DNA of 24,000 nucleotides from Alphaproteobacteria bacterium (lineage in GTDB: Bacteria; Pseudomonadota; Alphaproteobacteria; TMED109). Shown here in pieces: positions 543 through 24,000 of this stretch. The DNA is taken from the NCBI GenBank assembly GCA_029247025.1, contig JAQWLZ010000005.1, positions 1 through 24,000 of the forward strand, read 5' to 3'. Numbering within the stretch: the stretch's first letter is position 1; the number at the start of each line of letters is the position of its first letter. The notes under the pieces were generated by a model that saw nothing but the letters and a program-made list of their open reading frames with translations, did not search any database and was not told the DNA's origin. A program made the translations under genes and the position numbers.

Positions 543-785
543 TTAAATAAGTTTATTTTTACTAATCCAAAATCTATCTAGAAGGTAATACCAAAAACCA
601 TTAATTATTGGCTCTACTAATGCATCTGTTAAGCTTTCATAAATATTCGCACCTGTAAAATACATTACGCATGAAGCGGCAATAAACATATGTCCAATTG
701 AATATACAATTGTTCTAATTACTGAACCTGATTGATTTTTATAAAGATTTTTAATTTTTACCATCACGGGCCTGATAATAGGCAT
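543..785 (-). CDS. DUF2061-family small membrane protein
   Basis: 80 aa with two hydrophobic segments. The C-terminal pattern EPIINGFWYYLLDRFW resembles the DUF2061 signature (..YYxHERxW). Confidence 0.6.
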   Translation of the reverse strand: MPIIRPVMVKIKNLYKNQSGSVIRTIVYSIGHMFIAASCVMYFTGANIYESLTDALVEPIINGFWYYLLDRFWISKNKLI

Positions 786-819
786 TTATAACTATACTTT
801 ATTTTATTAAACTATATAC

Positions 820-838
820 GAGAATGATTATCATTCTC
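820..838. promoter_or_regulatory. Fur-box-like 19-bp palindrome (candidate Fur/Mur/Zur-family operator) upstream of the DUF2061 gene
   Basis: GAGAATGATTATCATTCTC has perfect 9+1+9 dyad symmetry and matches the classical Fur box GATAATGATAATCATTATC at 16 of 19 positions. It lies 35-53 nt upstream of the minus-strand start at 785. No T-run follows on either strand, so it is not an intrinsic terminator. Confidence 0.45.
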
Positions 839-949
839 AAAAAGTATTGTATAGAAATTATTTTTTTTTATATTAAATTTAATTCTTAGTATAATTTATA
901 AAATGCTAAATTAATAATTTATAGATTTTAGTAATCAATTATTAAAATA

Positions 950-1324
950 TTATTTAGTCATAGGTCCATTATTTTTTTTCCAATCACCTATAGCACCTAC
1001 ATTGGAGACATTAATGTAACCCATATCTATTAAAGTTTTTCCTGTTAATGCAGCTTGACCTCCAGCACCACAAACTAGAATAATTTCTGAGTTTTTTTTA
1101 AGATTATCATTATATAAAGGTGTAGCTTTATCAGCTACAAATTCAATTAATCCTCTTGGAATTTTTAAAGAGCCCGTTATGCTTCCTGTTTTAATTATAT
1201 CGGAGCTATCTCTTACATCAATAAAAACAGCTGAGTTATTTTTATGTTTTTCTATAGCGTCATTTAAATCAATTTTTTTTACAACTTTATTTGCTTCTTC
1301 AAGATAATCTTTTGCTGTTTTCAT
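950..1324 (-). CDS. Single-domain rhodanese-like sulfurtransferase
   Basis: 124 aa with the rhodanese layout: FIDVRD...G.I.GSLKIPRG..., and an active-site Cys loop ILVCGAGGQAALTG. Confidence 0.75.
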   Translation of the reverse strand: MKTAKDYLEEANKVVKKIDLNDAIEKHKNNSAVFIDVRDSSDIIKTGSITGSLKIPRGLIEFVADKATPLYNDNLKKNSEIILVCGAGGQAALTGKTLIDMGYINVSNVGAIGDWKKNNGPMTK

Positions 1325-1437: not shown

Positions 1438-1914
1438 ATGTATATTTACTTTTTAAAAATTATTTTTATCTATTTAATAATAAATTTCAGTTTTGTAAAT
1501 TTATTAAAATCGCAAGACTTAACTAGACAAGAGCCTATTGAAAAAATAGTTTACTTCAAAGGAGTTTCAGGAGAATCTCATTATTATGAACCAAATGAAT
1601 TAGTATTTGAAACTGGTAAATTGTATAAATTAAAATTATTAAATAATAGTGATTCTAAACATTATTTTTCATCAGGTTCTTTTTCTAAATCTATTTTTAC
1701 AAGAAAAATATAAGTAAATTTTGAGGGTAAGAAATTAGCCGAGGTAAAAGGTATTATTAATGAGGTTGAAGTATGGCCAAATCATGAAGTTGAATGGTGG
1801 TTTGTGCCCATTAAAACGGGTCGATTTGAAGATTTATATTGTAGAGTTAAAGATATGAAAAATGGATTAAAACATAGTGAAATGGGTATGCAGGGTACTA
1901 TAATTATTAATTAA
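1438..1914 (+). pseudogene. Secreted type-1-copper cupredoxin interrupted by one in-frame TAA (1711-1713)
   Basis: ORF 1438-1713 encodes a signal peptide plus the N-terminal half of a cupredoxin (YEPNELVFETGKLYKLKLLNNSDSKHYF). The same frame continues after the TAA for 66 more codons to TAA at 1912-1914. That part encodes the C-terminal half with Cys/His/Met ligands (FEDLYCRVKDMKNGLKHSEMGMQGTIIIN). The second half has no start codon of its own. Confidence 0.65.
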
Positions 1915-2012
1915 GCTATTCGATTTATCTGCTTTAAAAAATATCATTAAATTTTACATATATAATTTTCTATTAAGTATGATTATATTACTGTATTTCA
2001 TAGGAGTATATT

Positions 2013-2402
2013 ATGACATCTGAAATTTTTTATTTAGTTTTAAGTACAGGTTTATGTCTAATTTTATGGCTACCTTATTTATTAGAAAGAATTTTTAATC
2101 AAGGTTTAATAGATACTGCAGGTTATCCAGAAAAAATTGCAGCGCCTGCTAAGTGGGCACAAAGGTCAAAATTAGCACATAGCAATATGGTAGAAAATTT
2201 ACCTCTTTTTGCAATTTTAATTATATGTCTAAATATTTTAGAAATATCTAATTCAAATACATTATTAGCAGCTAGCTTATTCTTTTATGCAAGAATTATT
2301 CATGCAGTGGTATATACATTAGGTATACCATGGGTAAGAACTTTAGCATTCGTAGCATCATGGTTAGCAAATATTATTTTATTTATAAATATTATTTTAT
2401 AA
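2013..2402 (+). CDS. MAPEG-family membrane protein (membrane glutathione S-transferase-like)
   Basis: 129 aa with about 4 TM segments and the MAPEG signature RSKLAHSNMVENLPLFAILI (compare R.H.N..EN.P.F). AGGAG lies 7 nt upstream of the ATG. Confidence 0.7.
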   Translation: MTSEIFYLVLSTGLCLILWLPYLLERIFNQGLIDTAGYPEKIAAPAKWAQRSKLAHSNMVENLPLFAILIICLNILEISNSNTLLAASLFFYARIIHAVVYTLGIPWVRTLAFVASWLANIILFINIIL

Positions 2403-2442
2403 TTCATATACACTTTAATCTTGTTAAGAGATTAGTCATATA

Positions 2443-2784
2443 ATGTTTTCAATTTCTTTTCTTATTAGTATAATTAGAATAGCTACATTTGTAATATTTG
2501 CTTTTCTGCTTGAAAAAATATTTTATAATAGAAATTTAAATTCAGAACAAAAAAAATTATATAACTATAATAGCCGAAATAATATTAGTTCATATTTAAT
2601 TATAGGACTTTCAGTATCCACTATTTTTAATATTACTGAAGATTCTTATATTTATAGAATTAATAGTTTAATGGCAATATATGGGCCATGGCTTTTTATA
2701 TTAACTGGAGTATTAATACTTATAAAAAATTTAAAGTATAATATTAGAGTAAGGCAAAAGATTTTTGAAAATAAAATAGATTAA
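2443..2784 (+). CDS. Hypothetical small membrane protein (about 3 TM)
   Basis: Only an ORF with hydrophobic segments, on the same strand between the MAPEG gene and pmoC. No family recognised. Confidence 0.35.
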   Translation: MFSISFLISIIRIATFVIFAFLLEKIFYNRNLNSEQKKLYNYNSRNNISSYLIIGLSVSTIFNITEDSYIYRINSLMAIYGPWLFILTGVLILIKNLKYNIRVRQKIFENKID

Positions 2785-2908
2785 ATTTTTCATTTAATAA
2801 TTAAATATAAATTTTACATATTAATTAGTTGGTTTCCTAAAAATAAATAAGTTACGGTTTTTAGATTAATTTTTTTAATCTTATGTTTGAATATATTGGG
2901 AGAAAAAC

Positions 2909-3766
2909 ATGGCTTTTATAGATAATATAATACATGGAAAGGGTTTAAAAAAGTCTGTGAATAGTGAAAAGTATTCTAATGATAAATTACCTTGGTATAC
3001 TAAAACAACGGTATTTAAATACGGAAATTTTGGAATATTTATGTTTGGTATTATTGTAGTTGCTGCATTGGTAGCTGGCGCTAGAATTTATCAGGGATTA
3101 TATGGATTTGAGCATGGTCTAGATTCAATGTCACAAGGATTCCAAGATTATTGGATGACTCTTGTTAAAGCAGAGTTAATAGGTATATTTTCATTTAATG
3201 TGGTGCTTTGGTTATATCTTTGGTACTCGAGAGAAAGAGATATGGATAATGTAAAACCCGAAGTTGAATTAAAAAGATATATTAATTTAGTCCTTTGGAT
3301 ATTGTCATATACATTTATAGTTTACTGGACTACTAGTTATTTTGCGTATGCCGATGGTGCCTGGCATCAAACAGTTTTAAGAGATACCAGCTTTACTCCA
3401 AGTCATAATATTTTATTCTATGGCTGTATTCCATTATATTTAACATTTGGAGTAGGAGGTTTTTTGTATGCAATGACAAGACTGCCTTCCTTTGGAAGAG
3501 CCATATCTATTGCTTATACTTTTGCTGTCCTAGGACCTGCTCTTATCCTTCCTAATTTAGGTTTTAATGAATGGGGACATGCATATTGGATGACAGAAGA
3601 AATATTTTCCCATCCACTTCATTGGGGCTTTGTAGTTTTAGGTTGGAATGCTCTAGCTATAGGTGGCGTTCTAATGCAGATTGTTATTGGAATGTCTAAA
3701 TCATTTAAAAAAATAAATTCTAAATTTGCTGATAATTCAAATTCGGAATTTACTGAAAATCTATAA
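2909..3766 (+). CDS. pmoC: Copper membrane monooxygenase subunit C (PmoC/AmoC family)
   Basis: 285 aa polytopic protein. ADGAWHQTVLRDTSFTPSHNILFYG closely matches the PmoC core (..WHQ..RDT.FTPSH..FY). D149/H153/H166 and N220/H224/H238 align with M. capsulatus PmoC D156/H160/H173 and N227/H231/H245 at a constant offset of 7. RBS is GGGAG. Confidence 0.93.
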   Translation: MAFIDNIIHGKGLKKSVNSEKYSNDKLPWYTKTTVFKYGNFGIFMFGIIVVAALVAGARIYQGLYGFEHGLDSMSQGFQDYWMTLVKAELIGIFSFNVVLWLYLWYSRERDMDNVKPEVELKRYINLVLWILSYTFIVYWTTSYFAYADGAWHQTVLRDTSFTPSHNILFYGCIPLYLTFGVGGFLYAMTRLPSFGRAISIAYTFAVLGPALILPNLGFNEWGHAYWMTEEIFSHPLHWGFVVLGWNALAIGGVLMQIVIGMSKSFKKINSKFADNSNSEFTENL

Positions 3767-3780
3767 TTATAAAATTTATA

Positions 3781-3812
3781 ACACTCCATTAAATAATCAT
3801 TTAATGGAGTGT
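3781..3812 (+). promoter_or_regulatory. Perfect 14-bp stem / 4-nt loop hairpin in the pmoC-pmoA spacer
   Basis: ACACTCCATTAAAT-aatc-ATTTAATGGAGTGT. It starts 15 nt after the pmoC stop and ends 22 nt before the pmoA ATG. It is followed by CTATAAATTT, only a weak U-tract. Confidence 0.6.
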
Positions 3813-3834
3813 CTATAAATTTGGGGGTAGAAGT

Positions 3835-4668
3835 ATGAGTAAATCTGAATCTAGAAGTTTTTTTGGTAAAATTTTCAGAATGAGGTCTGAAGATAGAGAG
3901 ATTCTTAAAATAGTAGGACTGAATAAAGAGCAAGCGGGTTTAGCCAGATATTTTGATTTTTTAGTTGTAGCGGCTGCTTTTTTATTATTTTGCGGTGCAT
4001 TTCACCTGCATGTTATGTTGTCTGCTGGTGACTGGGATATGTTTATAGATTGGAAAGATAGGCAATACTGGCCTTTAATTATTCCGATTGATACAATTAT
4101 GTTTCCGGCCGCTGTTCAAGCAGCTTTTTGGTATTATTTTAGACTTCCAATAGGAGCTACTTTATGCGGTGTTTGTCTTTTAACATCGGTATGGATTGGA
4201 ACATATAGTTATTGGCATTTATGGACTATGTTTCCTATAGTTTTAAATGTACCATCTATAATTATAGCAGGATGTATTTTACTAGATGTAATTTTACTTA
4301 TTTTTAGAAGATGGATATTTGTTGCATGTATAGGAGCTCCATTATTTGCTTTAACTTTTTATCCTAGTAATATGGCGGCTTTAACGGGTTATTATGTTCC
4401 AGTTGAACATTTAGGGTCCATGGCATCAATGGCTGATGTTATTGGCTATACTTTTCCTAGATCTGCAACACCTGAATATATTAGAATTATTGAAACAGGT
4501 ACTTTGAGAACATTTGAGGGTACTTCAGTATGGGTTTCAGGAGTATTTGCTGCTTTTGTGTGCATATTTTTATATATGCTTTGGTGGCAGATTGGAATGG
4601 CTTTTTCTACAGTTAAAACTTGGTCACAATCTCCTAAACTTAAAAAATATTTGGGATTTAAGGGATAG
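3835..4668 (+). CDS. pmoA: Copper membrane monooxygenase subunit A (PmoA/AmoA family)
   Basis: 277 aa with long colinear similarity to PmoA as I recall it: SAGDWDMFIDWKDRQYW, MFPAAVQAAFW, RLPIGATLC, YVPVEH, TPEYIRIIETGTLRTFEG. RBS is GGGGG. Confidence 0.95.
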   Translation: MSKSESRSFFGKIFRMRSEDREILKIVGLNKEQAGLARYFDFLVVAAAFLLFCGAFHLHVMLSAGDWDMFIDWKDRQYWPLIIPIDTIMFPAAVQAAFWYYFRLPIGATLCGVCLLTSVWIGTYSYWHLWTMFPIVLNVPSIIIAGCILLDVILLIFRRWIFVACIGAPLFALTFYPSNMAALTGYYVPVEHLGSMASMADVIGYTFPRSATPEYIRIIETGTLRTFEGTSVWVSGVFAAFVCIFLYMLWWQIGMAFSTVKTWSQSPKLKKYLGFKG

Positions 4669-4671
4669 CAA

Positions 4672-5961
4672 ATGAAAATTAATTATACAAAATTATTAAA
4701 AATATTTTTAATATCAATATTTTATTTTGTTATTGATATGGTAGTGGCATATGCACATGGCGAAAAAGCTATGGAACCATATTTTAGAACAAGGACTGTT
4801 ATGTTTTATGATGTCACTTGGTCTACAGATAATGTAAAAGTAGGAGAGAATGTAACTATAGAGGGTAAATTTAGATTACATAGTGATTGGCCACAAGCAG
4901 TAGATGACCCTGACGTAATATATGTAAATCAAAGTATACCAGGTCCAGTATTTGCAAAAATTGAATCTTACTTAAATGGAGTTCCTGCACGACAATCTTT
5001 TAGAGATATGGAAGTTGGTAAAGATTACCATTACAAGATGGTGCTTCAAGGGAGAGTTCCTGGAAACCATCATGTGCACCCTGGAATAGCAATTAAAGGC
5101 TCTGGAACAATTATTGGTCCAGGACAGTTTATTAAGGTGTCAGGTTCACAAAAAGATTTTAAATTTCCTGTAACTACGATGGATGGAGTATTAATTGAAG
5201 ATTTAGAAACATATGCACTAGCAGATGTATTTAAATGGCATTCTACGCTAGCAATTCTGGGAATTTTTTGGCTACTTTGGTGGGTTTGGAGGCCACTATT
5301 AATTCCTAGATATCAAGCATTAAAGCAAGGACGAGAAGATTTATTAATAACTAGACTAGATTTAACAGTAGGAATTTTATTAGGAGTATTTGTTTTTGTT
5401 GCCATTGTTTATAATTATAATGTTCAGGCTAATAAATATCCTATAACAGTTCCTTTACAGACTAGTAGAATGTATACAGATCCTTTACCTGTTGCTGATC
5501 CACAAATTAAAATTAATGTCAGTCGTGCAGAATATGATATTCCAGGAAGAACTATGCGTATGTGGGTTGAAGTAAAAAACAATGGAGATAATAAAGTACG
5601 TTTAGGTGAGTTAACAACGGCTAATTTAAGGTTTATAAATAAATCTTTCGGTCATGCTATGAATAATGTAACTGCAAATTATCCATCAGAACATATGGCA
5701 GATGGTGGGTTAGAAATAGATAAGGATAAGTATATAAACCCAGGAGAAAGTCATAAAATGTTCATTACTGCTCAGGATGCAAGATGGGAAACCGAACGTC
5801 TTACAGCATTTTTAACGGACGTTGATGCCAGAGTAGGTGCATTATTGTTTTTTTATGATGAAGAAGGTAATAGAAAGATACTTGATGTAGCGTCATCAAT
5901 ATTACCAGTATTTACAGATGATGATGGAACTGGTCCAAGTTATCAAAGGATTGGAAGGTAG
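4672..5961 (+). CDS. pmoB: Copper membrane monooxygenase subunit B (PmoB/AmoB family)
   Basis: 429 aa. A signal peptide ends AYA|HGEKAMEPYFRTRTV (compare HGEKSQAAFMRMRT in PmoB). An H-V-H pair sits in PGNHHVHPG..GPGQFIKVSG. Two central TM helices separate two cupredoxin-like halves. It starts 3 nt after the pmoA stop. Confidence 0.93.
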   Translation: MKINYTKLLKIFLISIFYFVIDMVVAYAHGEKAMEPYFRTRTVMFYDVTWSTDNVKVGENVTIEGKFRLHSDWPQAVDDPDVIYVNQSIPGPVFAKIESYLNGVPARQSFRDMEVGKDYHYKMVLQGRVPGNHHVHPGIAIKGSGTIIGPGQFIKVSGSQKDFKFPVTTMDGVLIEDLETYALADVFKWHSTLAILGIFWLLWWVWRPLLIPRYQALKQGREDLLITRLDLTVGILLGVFVFVAIVYNYNVQANKYPITVPLQTSRMYTDPLPVADPQIKINVSRAEYDIPGRTMRMWVEVKNNGDNKVRLGELTTANLRFINKSFGHAMNNVTANYPSEHMADGGLEIDKDKYINPGESHKMFITAQDARWETERLTAFLTDVDARVGALLFFYDEEGNRKILDVASSILPVFTDDDGTGPSYQRIGR

Positions 5962-5962
5962 C

Positions 5963-6457
5963 GTGCTAAATTTAAAAAAATCAAGATTTCTTTATTTTAT
6001 AATTATAAGCATCTTAGGTTTATTATTTACATTTACTAGTAACGCACATACTTACAAGAAAATGGATGTTGAAATTATTCATCCTTGGTGTGTAGCTACT
6101 TTATCGGGCGGTAATTCAAATGCGTATATTACTATTTCTAATGATTCTAATAAAGACGTAGAATTAATAGGAATTAGTTCTGATTTTATTCAACATATAA
6201 TGATTATGAAAAATGGTAAATCTATAGAAAAAATTTCTATTTCTGCAGATGGTGGAATAAGAGGCGAAGATGATTTTTCAATTATGTTTCATGGCTCAAA
6301 AAAAGATTTAGTAAGTGGAGAAAATATTCCAGCAATTTTAAAATTTTCATCAGGTATGACAATTGATATTAAGTTTGTTATAGGTGAAAATACTACTCTT
6401 GATGAAAAAGAAAATACAGAAAACAAACAAGAGCATCATGATCATAGTAACCACTAA
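5963..6457 (+). CDS. PCu(A)C-like periplasmic copper chaperone (DUF461) with a His-rich C-terminal tail
   Basis: Family layout: IIHPWCVAT..NAYITISNDSNKDVELIGISS..QHIMIMKNG...IMFHGSKKDLVSGENIPAILKFSSGMTIDIKFVI, with tail EHHDHSNH. I prefer the GTG at 5963 (GGAAGG upstream, 1 nt after the pmoB stop, directly preceding the signal peptide) over the track's ATG at 5918 inside pmoB. Confidence 0.7.
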   Translation: MLNLKKSRFLYFIIISILGLLFTFTSNAHTYKKMDVEIIHPWCVATLSGGNSNAYITISNDSNKDVELIGISSDFIQHIMIMKNGKSIEKISISADGGIRGEDDFSIMFHGSKKDLVSGENIPAILKFSSGMTIDIKFVIGENTTLDEKENTENKQEHHDHSNH

Positions 6458-7028
6458 TAAATTGCACTTATATTTAAAGTTTTTTTTATTATATTCTTTT
6501 TTATTAGTAATTTTAATTCCTAAAAGTTTTGCCCATGGAGGTTTATCTTTAGATGAAGATTATTGTGTATTAACAGTCGGTAAATATGAAATGCATTTTA
6601 GCGGCTACCAACCAGAAAATAATGGTCCTAAAGAATTTTGCGAAGATATTCCTGAGACAGGAAATACAATTGTGGTATTAGATTTTATGGATGATGAATT
6701 ACGTTCGCTCCCCGTTGAAGTAAGAATAATTCTTGATACGGAAGAAAATAATGAGGATTTAGAAAGTATTACTGTATATAAAAAAGATTATAAAATATAT
6801 AAAAATGGAACAATAAGTTTAAGAAAAAATTTTGAAAACAAAGGAAAATTCATAGGTTATGTAACAGTAAAGGATGAAAATAATTTCATAATATCTGAAT
6901 TTCCATTTTCAGTAGGCATAGAAAGAAAAAGTTCATCTTATATTTACTTTATCATATTGGCTCTAATTACTGGAGCATCATTATTTTATTTTGGTAATAA
7001 GATTAGAAATAAATCGTTGAATGCGTAA
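6438..7028 (+). CDS. Orphan periplasmic protein with a C-terminal TM anchor and predicted N-terminal His (PmoD/AmoD-like position and architecture; homology unverified)
   Basis: Signal peptide ...ILIPKSFA|HGGLSLDEDYCVLTVGKYEMHFSGYQPENNGPKEFCEDIP, then an acidic beta-rich domain and a C-terminal helix YIYFIILALITGASLFYFG. The ATG at 6438 is chosen because it directly precedes the signal peptide. It overlaps the upstream stop by 20 nt. Confidence 0.6.
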   Translation: MIIVTTNKLHLYLKFFLLYSFLLVILIPKSFAHGGLSLDEDYCVLTVGKYEMHFSGYQPENNGPKEFCEDIPETGNTIVVLDFMDDELRSLPVEVRIILDTEENNEDLESITVYKKDYKIYKNGTISLRKNFENKGKFIGYVTVKDENNFIISEFPFSVGIERKSSSYIYFIILALITGASLFYFGNKIRNKSLNA

Positions 7029-7386
7029 TCTTTTAAAATATGTTTTATTAATATTTATATTTGAATATAATTATGCTTGTGCACACGCAGTATTAGAGTT
7101 TTCTGAACCAGCAAGGAGAGCTATATTATATAGAGCTCCTGAGCAAGTTGTTTTAACTTTTAATGAACCTGTAGAAATAGAATTTTCTAAAATACTATTA
7201 ATGAATAATGAAGATAAAATAATAGCTTCAAGTAGTAATCTGAAAAATATATATGATAATAATTCAATAGGTATGCAAATTCCTAAGTTAACTTCAGGAA
7301 TATATTTTATTCAATTTCAAGTTCTTTCAATTGATGGACATAAAGTAAAAGGCAGATATAAATTTACTATTAAGGATAGTAATTAA
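7021..7386 (+). CDS. copC: CopC-family periplasmic copper-binding protein
   Basis: 121 aa. The signal peptide ends ACA|HAVLEFSEPA. VVLTFNEPVE..FSKI, GIYFIQFQVLSIDGHKVKGRYKFTI matches the CopC/YobA pattern (HA.L..S.P...V.L.F.E.v...G.Y.v.w.v.S.DGH...G.f.F.v). It overlaps the upstream gene by 8 nt. Confidence 0.85.
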   Translation: MRNLLKYVLLIFIFEYNYACAHAVLEFSEPARRAILYRAPEQVVLTFNEPVEIEFSKILLMNNEDKIIASSSNLKNIYDNNSIGMQIPKLTSGIYFIQFQVLSIDGHKVKGRYKFTIKDSN

Positions 7387-7391
7387 TTCAA

Positions 7392-9338
7392 ATGGTTGAA
7401 ATACTTCTAAGTATCTCAAAATTTTTTCAAAGTATAATTTTAACATTTACACTTGGGTTTTATTTTGTAAATTATTACATAATAAAAAAATTTAAATATA
7501 GTATTAGTATTATTAATAGAATTACTCTGTATCTAATAATAGTATTAATAATATCAATTATTATACTTTTTCTTCAAGTTTATTATCGTTATGAAGATAT
7601 AAATGAATTACTTAATTTAAACTATATTATTACAATCTTATTTAAAACAAGGTTTGGCGGAATATGGTTAATAAAATTTTTTATTTTTATATTATTAATT
7701 ATAATATGTAGAATAAGAAATATTAACAATTTCTTAATAATATTTTTATTATCTTTGTCTTTAGGCTTAGTAACTCTGACAGGTCATGCTATTTCATCTG
7801 ATATGGTTTATGTAACTATTCCAGTTAATTTTATTCATATTGTTTCTGTTAGCTTATGGGTTGGAGCTTTACCATACCTCTTTTTTAATATATCAAAAGA
7901 TAATAATTCAGTAATTTACCAAGTTAAAAGATTTTCATCTTTTGCTTCTTATAATATGGTTTTTATATTATTTTCTGGTTTCTTATTATCATTAATAAAC
8001 TTAGATTATAGTTTTGCTGCATTATTAGGCACTGATTATGGTCAAGTTATAATTTTAAAATTATTATTTGTATCAATAGCATTACTTAGCGCTCTTTATA
8101 TAAGAATGTCTTTATTAAATGGAAAAAAATTTTTAAAATTTAATTTTTCTATTAAAAATATATTAAAGTTAGAGATTATTTCTGTTGTATTTATTTTTGG
8201 TATTGGAATTTTTCTTTCACAAACTATACCAGGAGCACACGATGAAATAGAGTGGCCATTAAATTTTAGATTATCTATAGATGTTGCAATGGAAGATACT
8301 ATAAATAAAAATAGTATTTTATTCCTATTAATTTTTATTAGTTTGTTTCTTGGTATAATTTTTATGGATTTTATTTTAAATAAAAAATTTAGTAAATCTT
8401 TCTTTTATTCAATTTCTATTATATCTATTTCAGGATTAGGTATAGTTTACTTATTATCTATTGAAGCTTACCCTGTAACCTATAAGCAACCGTCTGTCCC
8501 TTACTCGGCAATATCTGTTTATAATGGAAAATTATTATATAGAAATAATTGCGTACAATGTCACGGCTATTCTGGTCAAGGCGATGGGATAATAGTAAAT
8601 GAAGATTTAGCTATTTTACCTGCAAATTTAACTGAACCACATACTGCCTATCATACTGCTGGAGATATTTATTGGTGGTTAACAAACGGAATGCCTCCAA
8701 GCATAATGCCAGGATTTGAGAGTATATTGAATGAAGATAATAGGTGGGATTTAATAAATTTTTTAAGAACTTTATCTTTAAGTTATGAGGCAAGAATACT
8801 AAATAATAAAATTGTTTATAAAAAGCCTTGGTTACCAGCAGTAGATTTTGACTTTGTAACTCTAAATGGAAAAACAGGAAGGTTATCTCAGTATAGAGGT
8901 AAAAAAGCAATAATACTTATCATAATGGATAATATAAACAATAATGAAAATAGAATTAATAAAATTATTCAGGCGTATAATGACATAAAAGAATTAGGTG
9001 CAGAGGTATTATTGGTTTCTAGTAATAATAATTTTAAGCAAGAAAATTTCAATAAAAAATACAAAAATATTCCTTTTCCTATAATATATGAAGGTTCTGA
9101 AGAAATATTAAACACCTATAATTTATTTAGAAGAACTATATTAAATCCTGATAAAAAAGATAAAAATGAAAGCATAGAATATATCGAGTTTTTAATTGAT
9201 CAGTATGGTTATATTAGAACTAGATGGAAGCAAGATGAAATTAATGATGAAAATAAATCACTTAATTATTTATCAGCAATACAAGAATTAGAAAAAGAAG
9301 GTAAAATATTGGATTATCCTGATGAGCACGTTCATTAA
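7392..9338 (+). CDS. copD: CopD-family membrane protein fused to a class-I c-type cytochrome domain and a Cys-less thioredoxin/AhpC-TSA-like domain
   Basis: The N-terminal ~360 aa is polytopic with CopD motifs (LTGHAISSD; IHIVSVSLWVGALPYLF). Then comes the heme motif NNCVQCHGYSGQGDG with a distal GMPPSIMPGF. After that, VDFDFVTLNGKTGRLSQYRGKKAIILIIMD...GAEVLLVSSNN...FPIIYE looks like a redoxin fold lacking the CxxC/peroxidatic Cys. Confidence 0.8.
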   Translation: MVEILLSISKFFQSIILTFTLGFYFVNYYIIKKFKYSISIINRITLYLIIVLIISIIILFLQVYYRYEDINELLNLNYIITILFKTRFGGIWLIKFFIFILLIIICRIRNINNFLIIFLLSLSLGLVTLTGHAISSDMVYVTIPVNFIHIVSVSLWVGALPYLFFNISKDNNSVIYQVKRFSSFASYNMVFILFSGFLLSLINLDYSFAALLGTDYGQVIILKLLFVSIALLSALYIRMSLLNGKKFLKFNFSIKNILKLEIISVVFIFGIGIFLSQTIPGAHDEIEWPLNFRLSIDVAMEDTINKNSILFLLIFISLFLGIIFMDFILNKKFSKSFFYSISIISISGLGIVYLLSIEAYPVTYKQPSVPYSAISVYNGKLLYRNNCVQCHGYSGQGDGIIVNEDLAILPANLTEPHTAYHTAGDIYWWLTNGMPPSIMPGFESILNEDNRWDLINFLRTLSLSYEARILNNKIVYKKPWLPAVDFDFVTLNGKTGRLSQYRGKKAIILIIMDNINNNENRINKIIQAYNDIKELGAEVLLVSSNNNFKQENFNKKYKNIPFPIIYEGSEEILNTYNLFRRTILNPDKKDKNESIEYIEFLIDQYGYIRTRWKQDEINDENKSLNYLSAIQELEKEGKILDYPDEHVH

Positions 9339-10170
9339 AAGATACCAGATAATTATTTATTGTTCTTTAGTATTTACTTTATGGATATTAATAAGTTTTA
9401 GTTTTATTTTTTGTAGTTTTACTGATTATTGTATTATAAAAAAAATAGATAATAGTATTACTTTGCAGGAGCATATACCCAAATTAACTTGTGATAATAT
9501 AATGGCACAAGGTATAAAGAATATTTATACAAAAAGTAAATTAAAGGTATTAGTAATTCCTCCTAAAAATCATTTTGCTGATAAAAAATATTCTGCAATT
9601 ATAGTTCTTCCACCAGCAGGAAAAACTGTAAGAAAATCAGAGGGTTTTTATGAAGGGTTAACTTCATTAGCTAATAATAGTGGTTTCATAATTGCTTATA
9701 GCGATTACCTTCCTCTAAATGAAACTAATTTATCTAAAATATCAGAGGTAAAAAATACTCTGAGTGAAAATTATTGTATTAATAAAAATGATATAACTAT
9801 GTTAGGACATTCTGATGGAGCTACAAATGCCGCAATTATTTCTTATAGAGATATTGGAATAAAAATAAAGAATCTTATTATTTCTGCTAATGGGATTAAT
9901 AAAAAAGCTTTAGAAAGTGAAATATGTCCTAAAAAATTTTTTTCCCTTATGATACTGCATAGTGTAAATGATGCTTTTTTTAGAGATTTTGGCAGAGATA
10001 ATATTGAATGGATTTCGCTTTGCAGTAACTGCAAGAATACTTATGAAAAGCTAGATAATGGGTGTATGAAAATAAAAGATTGCGATAGAAAAATTGTATA
10101 TTGTGAAGGTAAAGAGTCACATAATGAATGGCCAAAAAGAAATAATATTATTATTGATTTTTTAAAGTAA
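9322..10170 (+). CDS. Alpha/beta-hydrolase esterase, PHB-depolymerase/LpqC-like family, N-terminally anchored
   Basis: N-terminal TM/signal segment, then IIVLPPAGKT...GFIIAYSDY, a nucleophile elbow MLGHSDGA (GxSxG), LHSVNDAFF, and a Cys-rich C-terminus ending ..VYCEGKESHNEWP as in the COG3509-type esterases I recall. The ATG overlaps the copD 3' end by 17 nt. Confidence 0.6.
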   Translation: MSTFIKRYQIIIYCSLVFTLWILISFSFIFCSFTDYCIIKKIDNSITLQEHIPKLTCDNIMAQGIKNIYTKSKLKVLVIPPKNHFADKKYSAIIVLPPAGKTVRKSEGFYEGLTSLANNSGFIIAYSDYLPLNETNLSKISEVKNTLSENYCINKNDITMLGHSDGATNAAIISYRDIGIKIKNLIISANGINKKALESEICPKKFFSLMILHSVNDAFFRDFGRDNIEWISLCSNCKNTYEKLDNGCMKIKDCDRKIVYCEGKESHNEWPKRNNIIIDFLK

Positions 10171-10238
10171 AACTAAATCTTTTTATAAAGATGTTAGAAT
10201 AATTTAAAAATTAATTTTAGTAGATATAAATATTAAAT

Positions 10239-13031
10239 TTAAAAGCTCATTAAAGATGAATCGATTGACTTTTCTTTTGGCGGAGCAAATTTAGTTAAAT
10301 CAATCCCTTTAACTGCATTTTTATATTCTTCGATAGTAGGAGTTCTTCCCAAAATTGCTGATAGAACCACAACGGGAGTTGAAGCTAAAAGAGATTCTCC
10401 TTTTTTATCTTCAGAATCTTCCACAACTCTTCCTTTGAATAGTCTTGTTGAGGTAGCCATTACCGTATCACCTTTTGATGCTTTTTCTTGGTTTCCCATA
10501 CAAAGATTACAACCAGGTCTTTCTAAATATAATATATTTTCATATTGCGTTCTTGCCGCATTTTTTGGATTAACATCATCGAATTCAAAACCTGAATACT
10601 TTTGTAAAATACTCCAATCACCCTCTGACTTAAGTTCATTTATAATATTATATGTGGGAGCAGCTACTACTAAAGGAGCTTTAAATTTAACACTACCAGA
10701 TTGATCTTCCAAATTTCTAAGCATTTGTGCAACTATTTTTACATCACCTTTATGCACCATACAGGAACCCACAAATCCAAGGTCTACGGTTTTCTCCGCA
10801 CCATAATAGGATATAGGCCTAATGGTGTCGTGTGTATAACGTTTAGATACATCAATATTATTAACATCTGGGTCAGCAATCATAGGCTCATCTATTTGAT
10901 CTAATTCAACAACTACTTCAGCGTAATATTTAGCATTTTCATCAGGTTTTAAAGCAGGTTTAGTACCAGATCTGATTTCAGAAATACGTTTGTTTGCAAT
11001 CTCTACTAATCTTTCTAGCATTGCTGCATCGTTTTCCATTCCATTATCTATCATTATTTGTATGCGATCTCTTGCTATATTGAGTGACTCAATTAATGTA
11101 CTATCATTAGAAATACATATTGATGCTTTTGCCTTCATTTCGGCAGTCCAATCAGTAAATGTAAAAGCTTGGTCTGCTAAAAGAGTACCAGTATGAACTT
11201 CAATCACTCTACCTTGAAAAACATTATCACCAAATTGTTTTAACATTTGCGATTGTGTGGCATGAACGACATCACGGAAATCAAGATGTTCTGACATTTT
11301 TCCCTTAAAAGTAACTTTAACAGATTCAGGGATTGGCATAGTAACCTCTCCTGTTGCAAGAGCTAATGCAACGGTTCCGGAATCTGCTCCGAAAGCAACT
11401 CCCTTAGACATACGAGTATGAGAATCTCCTCCAATTATAATCGCCCAATCATCTACAGTAATATCATTTAATACTTTATGAATTACATCTGTCATTGCAT
11501 GATAAACGCCTTTCGGGTCTCTGCCAGTTATTAAACCAAAATCGTGCATAAATTTCATTAATTTAGGTGTGTTTGTCTGAGCCTTTGAGTCCCAAACAGA
11601 AGCGGTATGACATCCAGATTGATAAGCTCCATTGACGGTAGGTGAGATAGTTGTCGCTGCCATAGATTCAAGTTCTTGTGCAGTCATTAATCCAGTAGTA
11701 TCCTGAGACCCAACTATATTTACTTTTGCTCTAACATCTGAACCTGCATGGAGAATAGAGTCTAGTTCAACACCAACAGCATTAGCATTAAATATTTTTT
11801 CAACAGCAGTAAGTCCTTGGTCCTTATGTAATACTTCTTTAGAAGGTGCATAAGCTGATTGTAAATCAATATTAAGGGCCTCACATGCAAAACTCTGTAA
11901 TTTTTTTCCAAATACAATTGCATATGAACCGCCTGCTTTCATAAATTCTGTTTTTTGAGGATTAAAGGATGATGAAATATCAACTAGTTCTTCATTACCA
12001 TTTTTATCATATAGTTTTTTATTTTTAGTATTTATGTTGAGAACAGTTCCTGTTTCTACTGAATACTTTTGTTCAAGAACAGGGTTACCATCATTATTTA
12101 TAATAGGGTTACCATTTGGATCTAATTTTTTTACCCAATTTTTTAAGTCAATTCCTATTCCACCAGTTACGCCTACAGTAGTTAAGAATATAGGAGAAAT
12201 ACCATTAGTTCCAGCAACTATTGGTGCATTATTAACAAAAGGTATGAATGGACTCGTTTTTTTTCCAGTAAGAAGGGCTACATTATTTACCCCAGACATT
12301 CTCGATGACCCTACACCCATAGTCCCTTTCTCTGCAATTAGCATAACACTTTTATCTGGATTCTCATTTTGTAATTTTTTAATTTCAGCTTGAGCTTTTT
12401 CTGTAATCATACATTTACCATGAAGTTCTCTATCTGATCGAGAATGTGCTTGATTTCCAGGAGATAAAAGATCTGTTGAGATGTCACCTTCTCCTGCCAC
12501 ATAAGTAACTACTTTTATTTCTTCATTTATATCTGGTAGGCTTGTATAAAATTCTGCTTTTGAATAACTTTTAAGAATATCTAGAGCTATTAAATTACCA
12601 CTCTGATAGGCATTTTTAAGACGGGTAGTATCAGCTTCGTATAAAAATACTTGTGTTTTAAGAATTTCTGCAGCATCAATAGCATTTCTTTGATTATCAC
12701 TTAAAGCTAAATCTAGAAGGATCTCTATAGATGGGCCTCCTTTCATGTGCGATAAAAGCTCTAATGCAAATGGTTTTGAAATTTCTGCAACCGATGTATT
12801 ATCTAAAATAATTTTTTTTAAAAATTTTGCTTTTTCATAAGCTGCGGTAGTAGTACCTGGAAGAGTATTATAAATTAGAAAATTTAGAGAGTCATCTCTG
12901 TATATACTGTTTTTATCTTCTATATTTATAATAAGTTCTTTTATTAATTCACCATCATCAATTGGCTTTGGTTTTAAATCTTGTTTTTTTCTTTCATTAA
13001 TTTCATTTAAGTAATCTTTGTACAAATTCAT
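10239..13031 (-). CDS. acnB: Aconitate hydratase B (bifunctional aconitase 2 / 2-methylisocitrate dehydratase type)
   Basis: 930 aa, colinear with E. coli AcnB: N-terminal HEAT-like domain, VGSQDTTG, GGDSHTR, FVGSCMVH, and PGCNLCMGNQ (Fe-S Cys ligands). Confidence 0.92.
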   Translation of the reverse strand: MNLYKDYLNEINERKKQDLKPKPIDDGELIKELIINIEDKNSIYRDDSLNFLIYNTLPGTTTAAYEKAKFLKKIILDNTSVAEISKPFALELLSHMKGGPSIEILLDLALSDNQRNAIDAAEILKTQVFLYEADTTRLKNAYQSGNLIALDILKSYSKAEFYTSLPDINEEIKVVTYVAGEGDISTDLLSPGNQAHSRSDRELHGKCMITEKAQAEIKKLQNENPDKSVMLIAEKGTMGVGSSRMSGVNNVALLTGKKTSPFIPFVNNAPIVAGTNGISPIFLTTVGVTGGIGIDLKNWVKKLDPNGNPIINNDGNPVLEQKYSVETGTVLNINTKNKKLYDKNGNEELVDISSSFNPQKTEFMKAGGSYAIVFGKKLQSFACEALNIDLQSAYAPSKEVLHKDQGLTAVEKIFNANAVGVELDSILHAGSDVRAKVNIVGSQDTTGLMTAQELESMAATTISPTVNGAYQSGCHTASVWDSKAQTNTPKLMKFMHDFGLITGRDPKGVYHAMTDVIHKVLNDITVDDWAIIIGGDSHTRMSKGVAFGADSGTVALALATGEVTMPIPESVKVTFKGKMSEHLDFRDVVHATQSQMLKQFGDNVFQGRVIEVHTGTLLADQAFTFTDWTAEMKAKASICISNDSTLIESLNIARDRIQIMIDNGMENDAAMLERLVEIANKRISEIRSGTKPALKPDENAKYYAEVVVELDQIDEPMIADPDVNNIDVSKRYTHDTIRPISYYGAEKTVDLGFVGSCMVHKGDVKIVAQMLRNLEDQSGSVKFKAPLVVAAPTYNIINELKSEGDWSILQKYSGFEFDDVNPKNAARTQYENILYLERPGCNLCMGNQEKASKGDTVMATSTRLFKGRVVEDSEDKKGESLLASTPVVVLSAILGRTPTIEEYKNAVKGIDLTKFAPPKEKSIDSSLMSF

Positions 13032-14232: not shown

Positions 14233-14350
14233 TTATATTAAATATAATTTTTATATGGCATAGGTAACAAAATGGATCATTTAAAAAAATTGTGTAGTAA
14301 AGTAATATTTTTTAATTGTATAAATAAATGGAGAATTGGAGGTATGTTAT

Positions 14351-23033: not shown

Positions 23034-24000
23034 TTATTTTAATATAAATCCTTGATAATTATTTTTAGAAACTTCATCACATTTTTCAACATATTTTGAA
23101 TACCCTCCCACATAAGGCATAAAGTTTTTAGCCTTTCCTTTTATATTGGCACCAATATACCATGAGCTACAGGAAGAACGAACATGATCTACAGACACTT
23201 CTTGATTGTGTTTATACCATTCATTTTCTGCTTTTAAAGATGCTTCTATAAAATTTTTATTATTATTTTTCATGTATTTAATACAATCAAATATCCAGTT
23301 AACATGCTGTTCGATCGAAACTATCATATTTGTCAAAACTGATGGACTTCCTGGACCTGAGATAGTAAATAAATTTGGAAAACCTGAAGATGCTAAACCT
23401 AGATAATTTTTAGGACCTTCAGACCATTTATTTTTTAATTTAATATTATTTTTTCCTTCAATATCAATATTGAATAAGGTCCCTGTCATAGCATCAAAGC
23501 CTGTTGCTAAGATAATTATATCAAGATCATAATGATTTTTAGAAGTAGTTATTCCTTTTGTATAAAATTCTTCAAGAGGCTCTGTTTTCAGGTCAACAAG
23601 CGTTATATTAGGCTTATTATATGTTTCATAATAATTGCTATCTACAGCTAACCTTTTACAGCCTATTGGGTAATCTGGAGTTAATAGCTTAGCAACATGT
23701 GAATCTTTTACTAAAGACTTTATTTTGTTTCTTACAAATTTAGCAGCTGTTTCATTAGCTTCTCTATCAAAGTTTAAGTCTTCAAAAGCTGCAATAAAGG
23801 GAACTCCACCTTCATTCCACCTATCTTCGAATACTGTTTCTCTTCTTTCTTTAGAAACATCCAACGCAGACTGATGATTAATAGGTAAAGCCAGTGCGGC
23901 TAATGAATTTTGTGCTTTTAATCTAAAATTCGAATAATTATATTTAACTTCTTCTATAAATAAATCATTATCGTATCCCACAGGTTCTCTCATGTATTTT
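23034..24000 (-). CDS. Type I Baeyer-Villiger monooxygenase (cyclohexanone/acetone monooxygenase-like), N-terminus outside the window
   Basis: IILATGFDAMTG, GFPNLFTISGPGSPSVLTNM and SWYIGANIKGKAKNFMPYVGG...YQGF match the C-terminal two thirds of CHMO-type BVMOs. The reading frame stays open to the window edge. Confidence 0.85.
   Translation of the reverse strand, partial: KYMREPVGYDNDLFIEEVKYNYSNFRLKAQNSLAALALPINHQSALDVSKERRETVFEDRWNEGGVPFIAAFEDLNFDREANETAAKFVRNKIKSLVKDSHVAKLLTPDYPIGCKRLAVDSNYYETYNKPNITLVDLKTEPLEEFYTKGITTSKNHYDLDIIILATGFDAMTGTLFNIDIEGKNNIKLKNKWSEGPKNYLGLASSGFPNLFTISGPGSPSVLTNMIVSIEQHVNWIFDCIKYMKNNNKNFIEASLKAENEWYKHNQEVSVDHVRSSCSSWYIGANIKGKAKNFMPYVGGYSKYVEKCDEVSKNNYQGFILK

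Follow-up and report, generated by a model that had tools for sequence, protein, structure and literature searches.

A putative copper membrane monooxygenase on a strain-variable cassette of an AT-rich pelagic alphaproteobacterium

Copper membrane monooxygenases (CuMMOs) initiate the oxidation of methane, ammonia, and light hydrocarbons, and those characterized so far come from a few specialized guilds. What would such an enzyme do in a streamlined alphaproteobacterium of the open ocean, and does it truly belong there? The question is raised by a 24,000-nucleotide stretch of DNA, hereafter the window (positions 1 to 24,000 of the forward strand of contig JAQWLZ010000005.1, assembly GCA_029247025.1), whose source in NCBI is a 37.4-kb contig of a metagenome-assembled genome (MAG) labelled "Alphaproteobacteria bacterium." Three adjacent plus-strand genes at positions 2909 to 5961, here called xmoC, xmoA, and xmoB, are already annotated by NCBI as methane/ammonia monooxygenase subunits. 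We consider it likely, and the best overall explanation, that they encode a working CuMMO which, together with a copper-loading module, forms an accessory cassette directed at a short-chain hydrocarbon. Contigs and proteins of relatives are identified below by labels in L and P, respectively.

An initial annotation of the window had described a complete CuMMO in C-A-B order, and both the open reading frames (ORFs) and profile hidden Markov model searches agree with it, all three subunits scoring far above the Pfam gathering cut-offs. XmoC (2909 to 3766, 285 amino acids [aa]) matched PF04896 AmoC with 272 bits (E value of 6.6e-81; cut-off, 26.7), XmoA (3835 to 4668, 277 aa) matched PF02461 AMO with 252 bits (1.1e-74; cut-off, 27.5), and XmoB (4672 to 5961, 429 aa) matched PF04744 Monooxygenase_B with 449 bits (2.2e-134; cut-off, 22.7). 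The same C-A-B order on one strand was found in at least 15 related loci. The CuB, CuC, and CuD sites retain all nine of their copper ligands. Alignment to the structures 3rgb, 6cxh, and 9leg showed that XmoB keeps the CuB ligands His29, His134, and His136, which correspond to His33, His137, and His139 of M. capsulatus PmoB. XmoB also has a signal peptide, whose cleavage leaves His29 at the N terminus (AYA|HGEK), and two transmembrane (TM) helices. In XmoC, alignment to chains of ammonia monooxygenase (AMO) and of particulate methane monooxygenase (pMMO) identified the CuC ligands Asp149, His153, and His166 and the CuD ligands Asn220, His224, and His238.

The three genes are under strong purifying selection. 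The ratios of nonsynonymous to synonymous substitution rates (dN/dS) were 0.13 for xmoC, 0.03 for xmoA, and 0.08 for xmoB relative to the independently assembled contig L113, a comparison free of saturation at synonymous sites. Intact ORFs and ratios as low as these (0.03 to 0.13) rule out that the cluster is a set of decaying pseudogenes. Judging from the sequence, the window very probably encodes a functional CuMMO. A separate observation concerns expression: an XmoA of the 85% subtype (P0122, in the cluster of P0007) comes from record KNS9250_BmetaT_FD_k123_181391_2, whose sample name points to a metatranscriptome, which suggests that the marine cassette is transcribed in situ.

The spacer between xmoC and xmoA contains a strong stem-loop of approximately 15 bp (3780 to 3813, plus strand), followed by a GGGGG/GGAGG ribosome-binding site for xmoA. 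A hairpin is present at this position in all three marine subtypes described below (window, L113, L117, L118, L001, and L121) with differing sequences, and 9 of the 22 pairs show compensatory changes on both sides, such as a C:G pair in the window and a U:A pair in L113. The hairpin may serve as an mRNA processing or stability element, or as a partial terminator that sets the ratio of C to AB. A promoter scan was uninformative in the AT-rich DNA of the window, with 67 sites found and 68 expected.

The initial annotation had taken xmoCAB for the whole feature. It is instead the core of a 10-gene module, all on the plus strand, that extends over 8.3 kb from about 1910 to 10208, as delimited by blastn breakpoints against the relatives L108 and L112. 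The genes encode, in order, a MAPEG-family protein, a small protein with two TM segments, XmoC, XmoA, XmoB, a PCuAC-type protein, a PmoD homologue, CopC, a CopD-cytochrome c fusion, and a hydrolase.

Four of the accessory proteins are related to copper handling. The first is a PCuAC-type periplasmic copper chaperone with a His-rich tail (5918 to 6457; PF04314, 43.8 bits). The PmoD/AmoD homologue (6438 to 7028, 196 aa from the ATG at 6438) matches PmoD of PDB entry 6CPD with an E value of 5.5e-16 over residues 60 to 178. It combines a signal peptide, a cupredoxin-like domain whose metal-motif Cys and His residues align with those of 6CPD, and a C-terminal TM anchor, and it has the features of the PmoD/AmoD family, with a location by xmoB and copCD that is conserved across related loci. 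CopC (7021 to 7386; PF04234, 66.6 bits) is a periplasmic copper-binding protein. The fourth protein (7392 to 9338) fuses a CopD membrane domain of nine predicted TM segments to cytochrome c and thioredoxin-fold domains (Pfam CopD, Cytochrom_C, and AhpC-TSA), with the c-type cytochrome motif CVQCH at residue 387. As a side observation, its C-terminal thioredoxin/AhpC-TSA-like domain (residues 482 to 609) is probably not a redox-active thioredoxin, because it contains neither a CxxC motif nor any other Cys pair.

The remaining proteins are less easily assigned to copper supply. The MAPEG-family membrane protein (2013 to 2402; PF01124, 71 bits) resembles membrane glutathione transferases and has three predicted TM segments. 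The small membrane protein next to it (2443 to 2784, 113 aa, two predicted TM segments), recognized by alignment, hydropathy, and synteny, measures 84 to 109 aa in relatives and always occupies the gap between the MAPEG gene and xmoC. It may be an extra TM subunit, and supernumerary helices are known for both pMMO and AMO (PMC11725843). The last gene (9322 to 10170) codes for a membrane-anchored, Cys-rich, alpha/beta-hydrolase-like protein of 282 aa, identified by alignment and by weak alpha/beta-hydrolase Pfam matches in its homologues. It shares an invariant GHSDG serine-hydrolase motif and a conserved Asp and His with its relatives, whose lengths are 282 to 288 aa. A sequence search of the PDB returned no match for it, and a single-sequence structure model had a predicted local distance difference test (pLDDT) score of 42.

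Which of these genes travel with the enzyme elsewhere? The order xmoCAB-pmoD-copC-copD/cytochrome c-hydrolase recurs in four contigs of 58 to 69% GC with 51 to 62% XmoA identity (L109, L111, L126, and L127). Since the order is kept in such distant high-GC relatives, the seven-gene set represents a conserved unit of a broad CuMMO clade, and the hydrolase gene closes this core there as well as in L001. The MAPEG gene is present in L001, L113, and L116 to L121 and absent from the four high-GC contigs. By sequence comparison, only the marine low-GC cassettes include MAPEG, the small TM protein, and PCuAC. These cassettes fall into at least three subtypes according to XmoC identity to the window, at least 94% (L113, L116, L117, and L010), 87% (L118 and L119), and 77% (L001, L120, and L121), all on contigs of 26 to 30% GC. 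In the 77% subtype, the PCuAC gene has moved to the cassette end, as seen in L001 and L121.

Is the cassette a fixed part of this genome? The initial annotation had argued that the region was no recent island, having seen no integrase, transposase, or direct repeat. Domain searches of the window indeed detected no integrase or transposase gene, and the att-like direct repeats sought at both ends of the island amounted to no more than chance AT-rich matches. Together with a composition that is not atypical, the locus lacks the classical marks of a mobile island. The conclusion that the region does not look like an island is nevertheless not supported, as the segment from about 1910 to 10208 is missing in the closest relatives and located elsewhere in others. 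In L108 (AcnB 95% identical, flanking DNA 93.6 to 95.1%), window positions 1909 and 10209 map only 27 nucleotides apart (blastn breakpoints at L108 12851 and 12823). In L112 (AcnB 96%, flanking DNA 94 to 95%), 21 nucleotides replace the cassette, the breakpoints at window 1914 and 10205 corresponding to L112 12849 and 12827. In a sister population (AcnB 94%), the cassette is absent from 24 of the 24 contigs read, including the empty sites of L101 to L107, and a 143-aa ORF occupies its position. The related cassettes of L001 and L121 lie in a different neighborhood. Because close relatives with conserved flanks have empty sites, the cassette is accessory, and we conclude with high confidence that it is a strain-variable island of the flexible genome, in a hypervariable region by the rRNA (rrn) operon.

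At the left border of this region, the initial annotation had noted the end of an rrn operon, and Rfam and ARAGORN matches located it on the plus strand at 1 to 441, with the 3' end of the 23S rRNA at 1 to 114, the 5S rRNA at 183 to 297, and a tRNA-fMet at 365 to 441. This end lies near a rhodanese gene and acnB in L101 and L104 as well. The left edge of the island is the stop codon of a cupredoxin-like periplasmic protein gene (1438 to 1914, plus strand), a flanking gene that occurs with or without the cassette and was recognized by alignment with L113 and L108, weak Cupredoxin_1 matches, and synteny. At the right edge is the core gene acnB for aconitase B (10239 to 13031, minus strand; NCBIfam NF006690, 930 bits). 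The AcnB proteins of relatives are 88 to 97% identical to that of the window, irrespective of the presence of the cassette.

The right breakpoint has also received other DNA. In L010, a 27.9-kb ENA contig, the cassette is followed at breakpoint 10210 by a gene for a 2063-aa autotransporter (Big_5 and Autotransporter domains; L010 5823 to 11587). The site is reused. The DNA of the 143-aa ORF that L101 to L107 have in this place (L101 12908 to 13339) resembles the start of the L010 insert, and this ORF may therefore be a remnant of an L010-type autotransporter insert. Further variation was observed beyond the rhodanese gene, where other cargo precedes or replaces the rrn end: L101 to L103 carry a complete type I restriction-modification system (HsdR, HsdS, and HsdM; L101 15052 to 21385) and L108 carries pirin, two DUF2924 genes, and an OEP/RND efflux system (L108 13833 to 22793). 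The interval from rrn to acnB thus has the character of a hypervariable region along its whole length. Another variable spot, at window positions 14251 to 14299, is situated between a pentapeptide gene and orf169. Relatives (L004 1841 to 7201, L092/L093, and L108 7712 to 8784) carry an epimerase gene there, either alone or with genes for a Hydrolase_3 protein (S6PP-like), a protein of 406 aa, and an enzyme of the alpha-amylase family, which might serve to make sugars or compatible solutes. None of these genes is present in the window.

A cassette in a MAG contig could also result from faulty assembly or binning, which would have joined a CuMMO to an alphaproteobacterial backbone. The nature of the source and the frequent breaks of relatives' contigs in this region are compatible with such an artefact, as is the stretch from 441 to 927, the sole junction whose gene order has no copy in the other contigs seen. 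However, both ends of the cassette were assembled independently from other samples. The junction between the cupredoxin gene and MAPEG recurs in L113 and an ENA contig of 9.5 kb, the right end recurs in L010, and the adjacency of the rhodanese and cupredoxin genes recurs in L108. In addition, codon usage is identical between cassette and flanks, and all three cassette subtypes are found on low-GC contigs. As the junctions were assembled independently, a chimera is very improbable. An exact look-up of the XmoB and AcnB of the window itself matched no indexed contig.

Three local irregularities were also noted. The order of the DUF2061 and rhodanese genes (window 543 to 1324) is swapped in the sister population (14065 to 14866 in L101 and L104), a small rearrangement by the rrn operon. 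The first approximately 200 nucleotides of L010 have no match to xmoA, similarity to the window starting at L010 position 201 (window 4575, inside xmoA); the assembly has probably joined different strains here, at the end of the contig. Finally, the cupredoxin-like gene is intact in L113 and L108 (158 aa) and split in the window by a CAA-to-TAA change at 1711 to 1713, which is either a strain pseudogene or an error of the MAG consensus.

How long has the cassette been in such genomes? The initial annotation had judged the composition and third codon positions of pmoCAB to be host-like by eye, and the numbers bear this out. The GC content at third codon positions (GC3) amounts to 0.159 for the cassette and 0.163 for the flanking genes. 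Relative synonymous codon usage (RSCU) correlates at 0.98 between cassette and flanks, which exceeds the 0.95 obtained when one half of the flanking genes is compared with the other. Codon usage of this kind excludes that the cassette was recently imported from a donor of foreign composition. Given the equality of GC3 and RSCU with the flanks and the existence of three AT-rich subtypes, the cassette is old, long resident in low-GC marine genomes, and fully adapted to them.

We then considered the identity of these genomes. An AT-rich marine alphaproteobacterium had been proposed as the host, and this description holds. The contiguous 23S-5S-tRNA-fMet genes are the usual alphaproteobacterial arrangement; in SAR11 the 23S and 5S genes are split. 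The placement itself relies on RecQ and AcnB rather than on ribosomal proteins or 16S rRNA. A RecQ relative at 87% was labelled Pelagibacterales by one NCBI submitter, the next named one (79%) belongs to MarineAlpha9_Bin3, and identity then drops to 58%. The proposed likeness to Pelagibacterales is imprecise. Among the GTDB-representative matches listed, the best AcnB relatives (77 to 81%) are low-GC single-cell genomes labelled SAR116; among the AcnB relatives so listed (at most 81%), none has a CuMMO, and an XmoB scan of GTDB species representatives gave no match. MarineAlpha9 is described as an AT-rich, streamlined marine lineage of uncertain placement, distinct from HIMB59 and Pelagibacterales (PMC8879329; bioRxiv 715870). 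On the basis of these protein comparisons, we call the host an uncultured pelagic alphaproteobacterium of low GC content with MarineAlpha9 among its relatives, rather than an established member of SAR11. The sample names of related contigs (Tara Oceans, Mediterranean, and ALOHA) indicate a wide distribution in the open ocean.

The host locus contains another oxygenase gene outside the island. A 550-aa flavin monooxygenase, partial in the window (23034 to 23993) and of full length in L093 (6647 to 8299), is a core gene that also occurs in island-free relatives. Its best NCBIfam match is the Baeyer-Villiger monooxygenase PtlE, at 249 bits far below the cut-off, and not trimethylamine monooxygenase. 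In related loci, it is followed by ergothioneine-type genes (DinB_2/FGE-sulfatase and Methyltransf_33) and SelO.

What the enzyme oxidizes had been left open by the initial annotation, and rightly so. Only seven clusters at least 85% identical to XmoA were found among 5.8 billion clustered proteins, and the next one was 64% identical. Identity is 39% to the AMO chain 9pxf_D, 42% to M. capsulatus pMMO (1yew_B), 45% to the "pmoA2" product of the marine ethane oxidizer ET-HIRO (P0118), and 51 to 53% to MAG proteins labelled Burkholderiales, Methylibium, and Vitreoscilla (P0041, P0081, P0090, and P0099). In a midpoint-rooted neighbor-joining tree of hits collected through a word index, with three functional anchors, the marine XmoA proteins are grouped on a separate long branch. 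The large clade that surrounds it consists mostly of unnamed sequences and does not include the AMO, pMMO, and ET-HIRO anchors.

On this basis, we tentatively favor short-chain (C2-C4) alkanes or alkenes as the substrate class, over methane and ammonia, at somewhat less than even odds. The assignment follows from the position of XmoA outside the AMO and pMMO references, in a clade with the Burkholderiales-labelled MAG proteins, and from the classification of Tara Oceans CuMMO homologues as "only ethane and hydrocarbon monooxygenases," not pMMO, in a study that includes no host analysis and whose pmoA tree bears gene-catalogue identifiers only, giving no host match (PMC11996626). The CuMMOs of alkane-using Comamonadaceae are reportedly induced by C2-C4 alkanes, in work said to be by Rochman and colleagues from 2020, and they are likewise said to belong to the Burkholderiales part of the clade.

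Methane is a first rival substrate. In oxic, phosphate-starved surface water, nanomolar methane, released for instance by methylphosphonate cleavage, could provide reducing power, and the host locus contains the phosphate-starvation genes PhoD and PhoX in an organism whose sample names indicate an open-ocean life. pMMO has identical CuB, CuC, and CuD ligands, and XmoB scored best against pMMO chains (331 bits for 6cxh and 325 for 3rgb, versus 322 for AMO). In contrast, XmoA, at the 42% identity given above, does not cluster with methanotroph PmoA and lies outside the pMMO/AMO group of the tree. The equivalog models are not passed either: TIGR03080 scored 240 bits (cut-off, 318) and TIGR03078 scored 261 bits (cut-off, 281). 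The Tara Oceans homologues were similarly judged not to cluster with pmoA (PMC11996626), and neither the cassette nor the window contains a methanol dehydrogenase or C1 gene. We thus regard a methane monooxygenase as unlikely.

The models for ammonia oxidizers gave a less clear-cut picture. XmoB passes NCBIfam AmoB_BACT (495 bits; cut-off, 336), and AmoA_BACT (281.9 versus 290) and AmoC_BACT (315.7 versus 319) fall 3 to 8 bits short. XmoC scored better against an AMO chain (228 bits) than against the best pMMO chain (215 bits). The xmoCAB-pmoD-copCD order further resembles the amoCAB-amoED-copCD order of betaproteobacterial ammonia oxidizers. An enzyme that makes hydroxylamine, in heterotrophic or incomplete nitrification, could account for these features. 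However, XmoA is less similar to the AMO structure than to any other reference, no gene for hao, cytochrome c554, or cM552 was found in the cassette, the window, or related cassettes, and many relatives that are not nitrifiers have the same gene order. An ammonia monooxygenase is accordingly quite improbable.

The accessory genes hint at yet other possibilities, such as ethylene or isoprene oxidation with glutathione-dependent handling of the epoxide, oxidation of acetone or another volatile, or detoxification and co-metabolism. MAPEG is tightly linked to xmoCAB in all three marine subtypes, although not in the high-GC relatives. A conserved secreted serine hydrolase closes the module, and no dehydrogenase is encoded on the cassette. 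Ethylene oxidation by a CuMMO homologue is known from marine Haliea (PMC4036023), and acetone oxidation from Verrucomicrobia (PMC8630023). Nevertheless, MAPEG proteins have many roles, no genes of glutathione or coenzyme M epoxide pathways are nearby, and the hydrolase nucleophile is Ser rather than the Asp typical of epoxide hydrolases. With evidence that is circumstantial throughout, we consider a substrate or role of this kind doubtful. The probability left after these four readings goes to another substrate or to inactivity.

Several points weigh against our preferred C2-C4 assignment as well. The alkane link comes from the Burkholderiales labels of MAG proteins and from the one report on Comamonadaceae, and the tree that separates XmoA from the functional references is of the crude kind described above. 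The AMO models, one of them passed and two narrowly missed, point in another direction. No named protein is more than 53% identical, and substrate specificity has switched repeatedly in the CuMMO family (PMC6215863), so that transferring a substrate from relatives is unsafe. Finally, no alcohol or aldehyde dehydrogenase gene is on the cassette, and domain searches of the 24-kb window found no methanol, hydroxylamine, or alcohol dehydrogenase gene, in agreement with the initial annotation. As no product-converting gene is on the cassette, the core metabolism of the host would have to convert the alcohol or epoxide.

Returning to the short-chain hydrocarbon reading, the cassette can be pictured as follows. 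XmoC, XmoA, and XmoB would form a membrane enzyme that transfers a single atom of O2 to a small substrate of low reactivity. Copper would be acquired and delivered in the periplasm by PCuAC, CopC, the PmoD homologue, and the CopD-cytochrome c fusion, which together might also supply electrons, the cytochrome domain of the CopD fusion being a candidate for electron transfer. The small two-TM protein might be an additional subunit, and the MAPEG protein and the serine hydrolase would probably handle reactive products. Short-chain hydrocarbon oxidation would then be a supplementary source of energy or carbon for some strains only, those that have the cassette.

Part of this picture is familiar. 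The CuMMO family is known, and so are orphan CuMMOs in other non-methanotrophic proteobacteria (PMC6215863). The streamlined, AT-rich pelagic alphaproteobacterial host, the exchangeable cassette with defined empty sites, and the marine-specific accessory genes are new. Literature searches that covered Pelagibacterales, HIMB59, SAR116, and bacterioplankton as well as the assembly accessions yielded no description of this CuMMO, nor is it mentioned in the HIMB59 island paper or in two SAR116 papers. A report of a "novel methanotroph" from the Gulf of Mexico concerns other hosts, Planctomycetota and Verrucomicrobiota.

If the enzyme is active, heterotrophs of the surface ocean could tap trace gases or volatile hydrocarbons, and surveys based on amoA/pmoA markers would misassign or miss these genes. 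The precise empty and occupied sites allow strains that carry the cassette to be compared, in nature, with those that lack it, so that its ecology is testable by read recruitment, including where and at what levels of copper, phosphate, or hydrocarbons it is favored. The conserved seven-gene core points to accessory factors of possible relevance to CuMMO biochemistry in general. The most far-reaching version, that some strains of an abundant streamlined open-ocean alphaproteobacterium oxidize a climate-relevant trace gas (methane, or ethylene, ethane, or isoprene) at nanomolar levels in sunlit oxic water, with MAPEG, the small two-TM protein, and the serine hydrolase as a previously undescribed set of CuMMO accessory proteins, is a long shot. 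It would imply an unrecognized biological sink run by oligotrophic heterotrophs, not by specialized methanotrophs or hydrocarbon degraders.

How, then, does the cassette compare with known systems? Its nearest kin is the uncharacterized clade of the high-GC contigs L109, L111, L126, and L127 and the MAG proteins P0041, P0081, P0090, and P0099, with which it shares the order of the seven core genes, 51 to 64% XmoA identity, the PmoD-like protein, CopC, the CopD-cytochrome c fusion, and the GHSDG hydrolase of 282 to 288 aa. In contrast to this clade, the marine cassette has 26 to 30% GC, adds MAPEG, the small two-TM protein, and PCuAC, forms its own long branch, and is a strain-variable island in a streamlined pelagic alphaproteobacterium. 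With pMMO (PDB entries 1yew, 3rgb, 6cxh, and 7s4h) it has in common the three subunits, the CAB order, all CuB, CuC, and CuD ligands, and the association with PmoD and CopCD; it differs by the 42% XmoA identity, the TIGR03080 and TIGR03078 scores below cut-off, the position outside the pMMO group, and the absence of C1-pathway genes nearby. Bacterial AMO (PDB entries 9pxf, 9leg, and 9cl6) has the same architecture and ligands, and the AmoB_BACT score and the slightly closer match of XmoC to AmoC than to PmoC add to the likeness. The 39% XmoA identity, the AmoA_BACT and AmoC_BACT scores, and the lack of hao or cytochrome genes nearby set the two apart.

The marine ethane and ethylene oxidizers, Methylococcaceae ET-HIRO with its "pmoA2" (P0118) and Haliea ETY-M/ETY-NAG (PMC4036023), similarly use a pMMO-like enzyme on C2 hydrocarbons, not on methane. 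However, ET-HIRO groups with the AMO/pMMO references instead of the window clade, at 45% identity, and the hosts are gammaproteobacteria. A precedent for orphan xmoCAB operons comes from Skermanella and Bradyrhizobium sp. ERR11, alphaproteobacteria that live neither as methanotrophs nor as nitrifiers (Khadka et al. 2018, PMC6215863). By description they are distinct, as soil bacteria with large GC-rich genomes, and the Skermanella enzyme nests in the pMMOs.

As an island, the locus recalls hypervariable region 2 (HVR2) of SAR11, which is said to adjoin rRNA genes. The likeness extends to the phosphate islands of HIMB59 (PMC10734472) and includes the fixed position by rRNA or tRNA genes, the strain-varying cargo, the absence of an integrase, the host-like composition, and the frequent contig breaks. 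What differs is the cargo: the SAR11 and HIMB59 islands carry cell-envelope or phosphate genes, whereas that of the window would represent a complete module for trace-gas or hydrocarbon oxidation.

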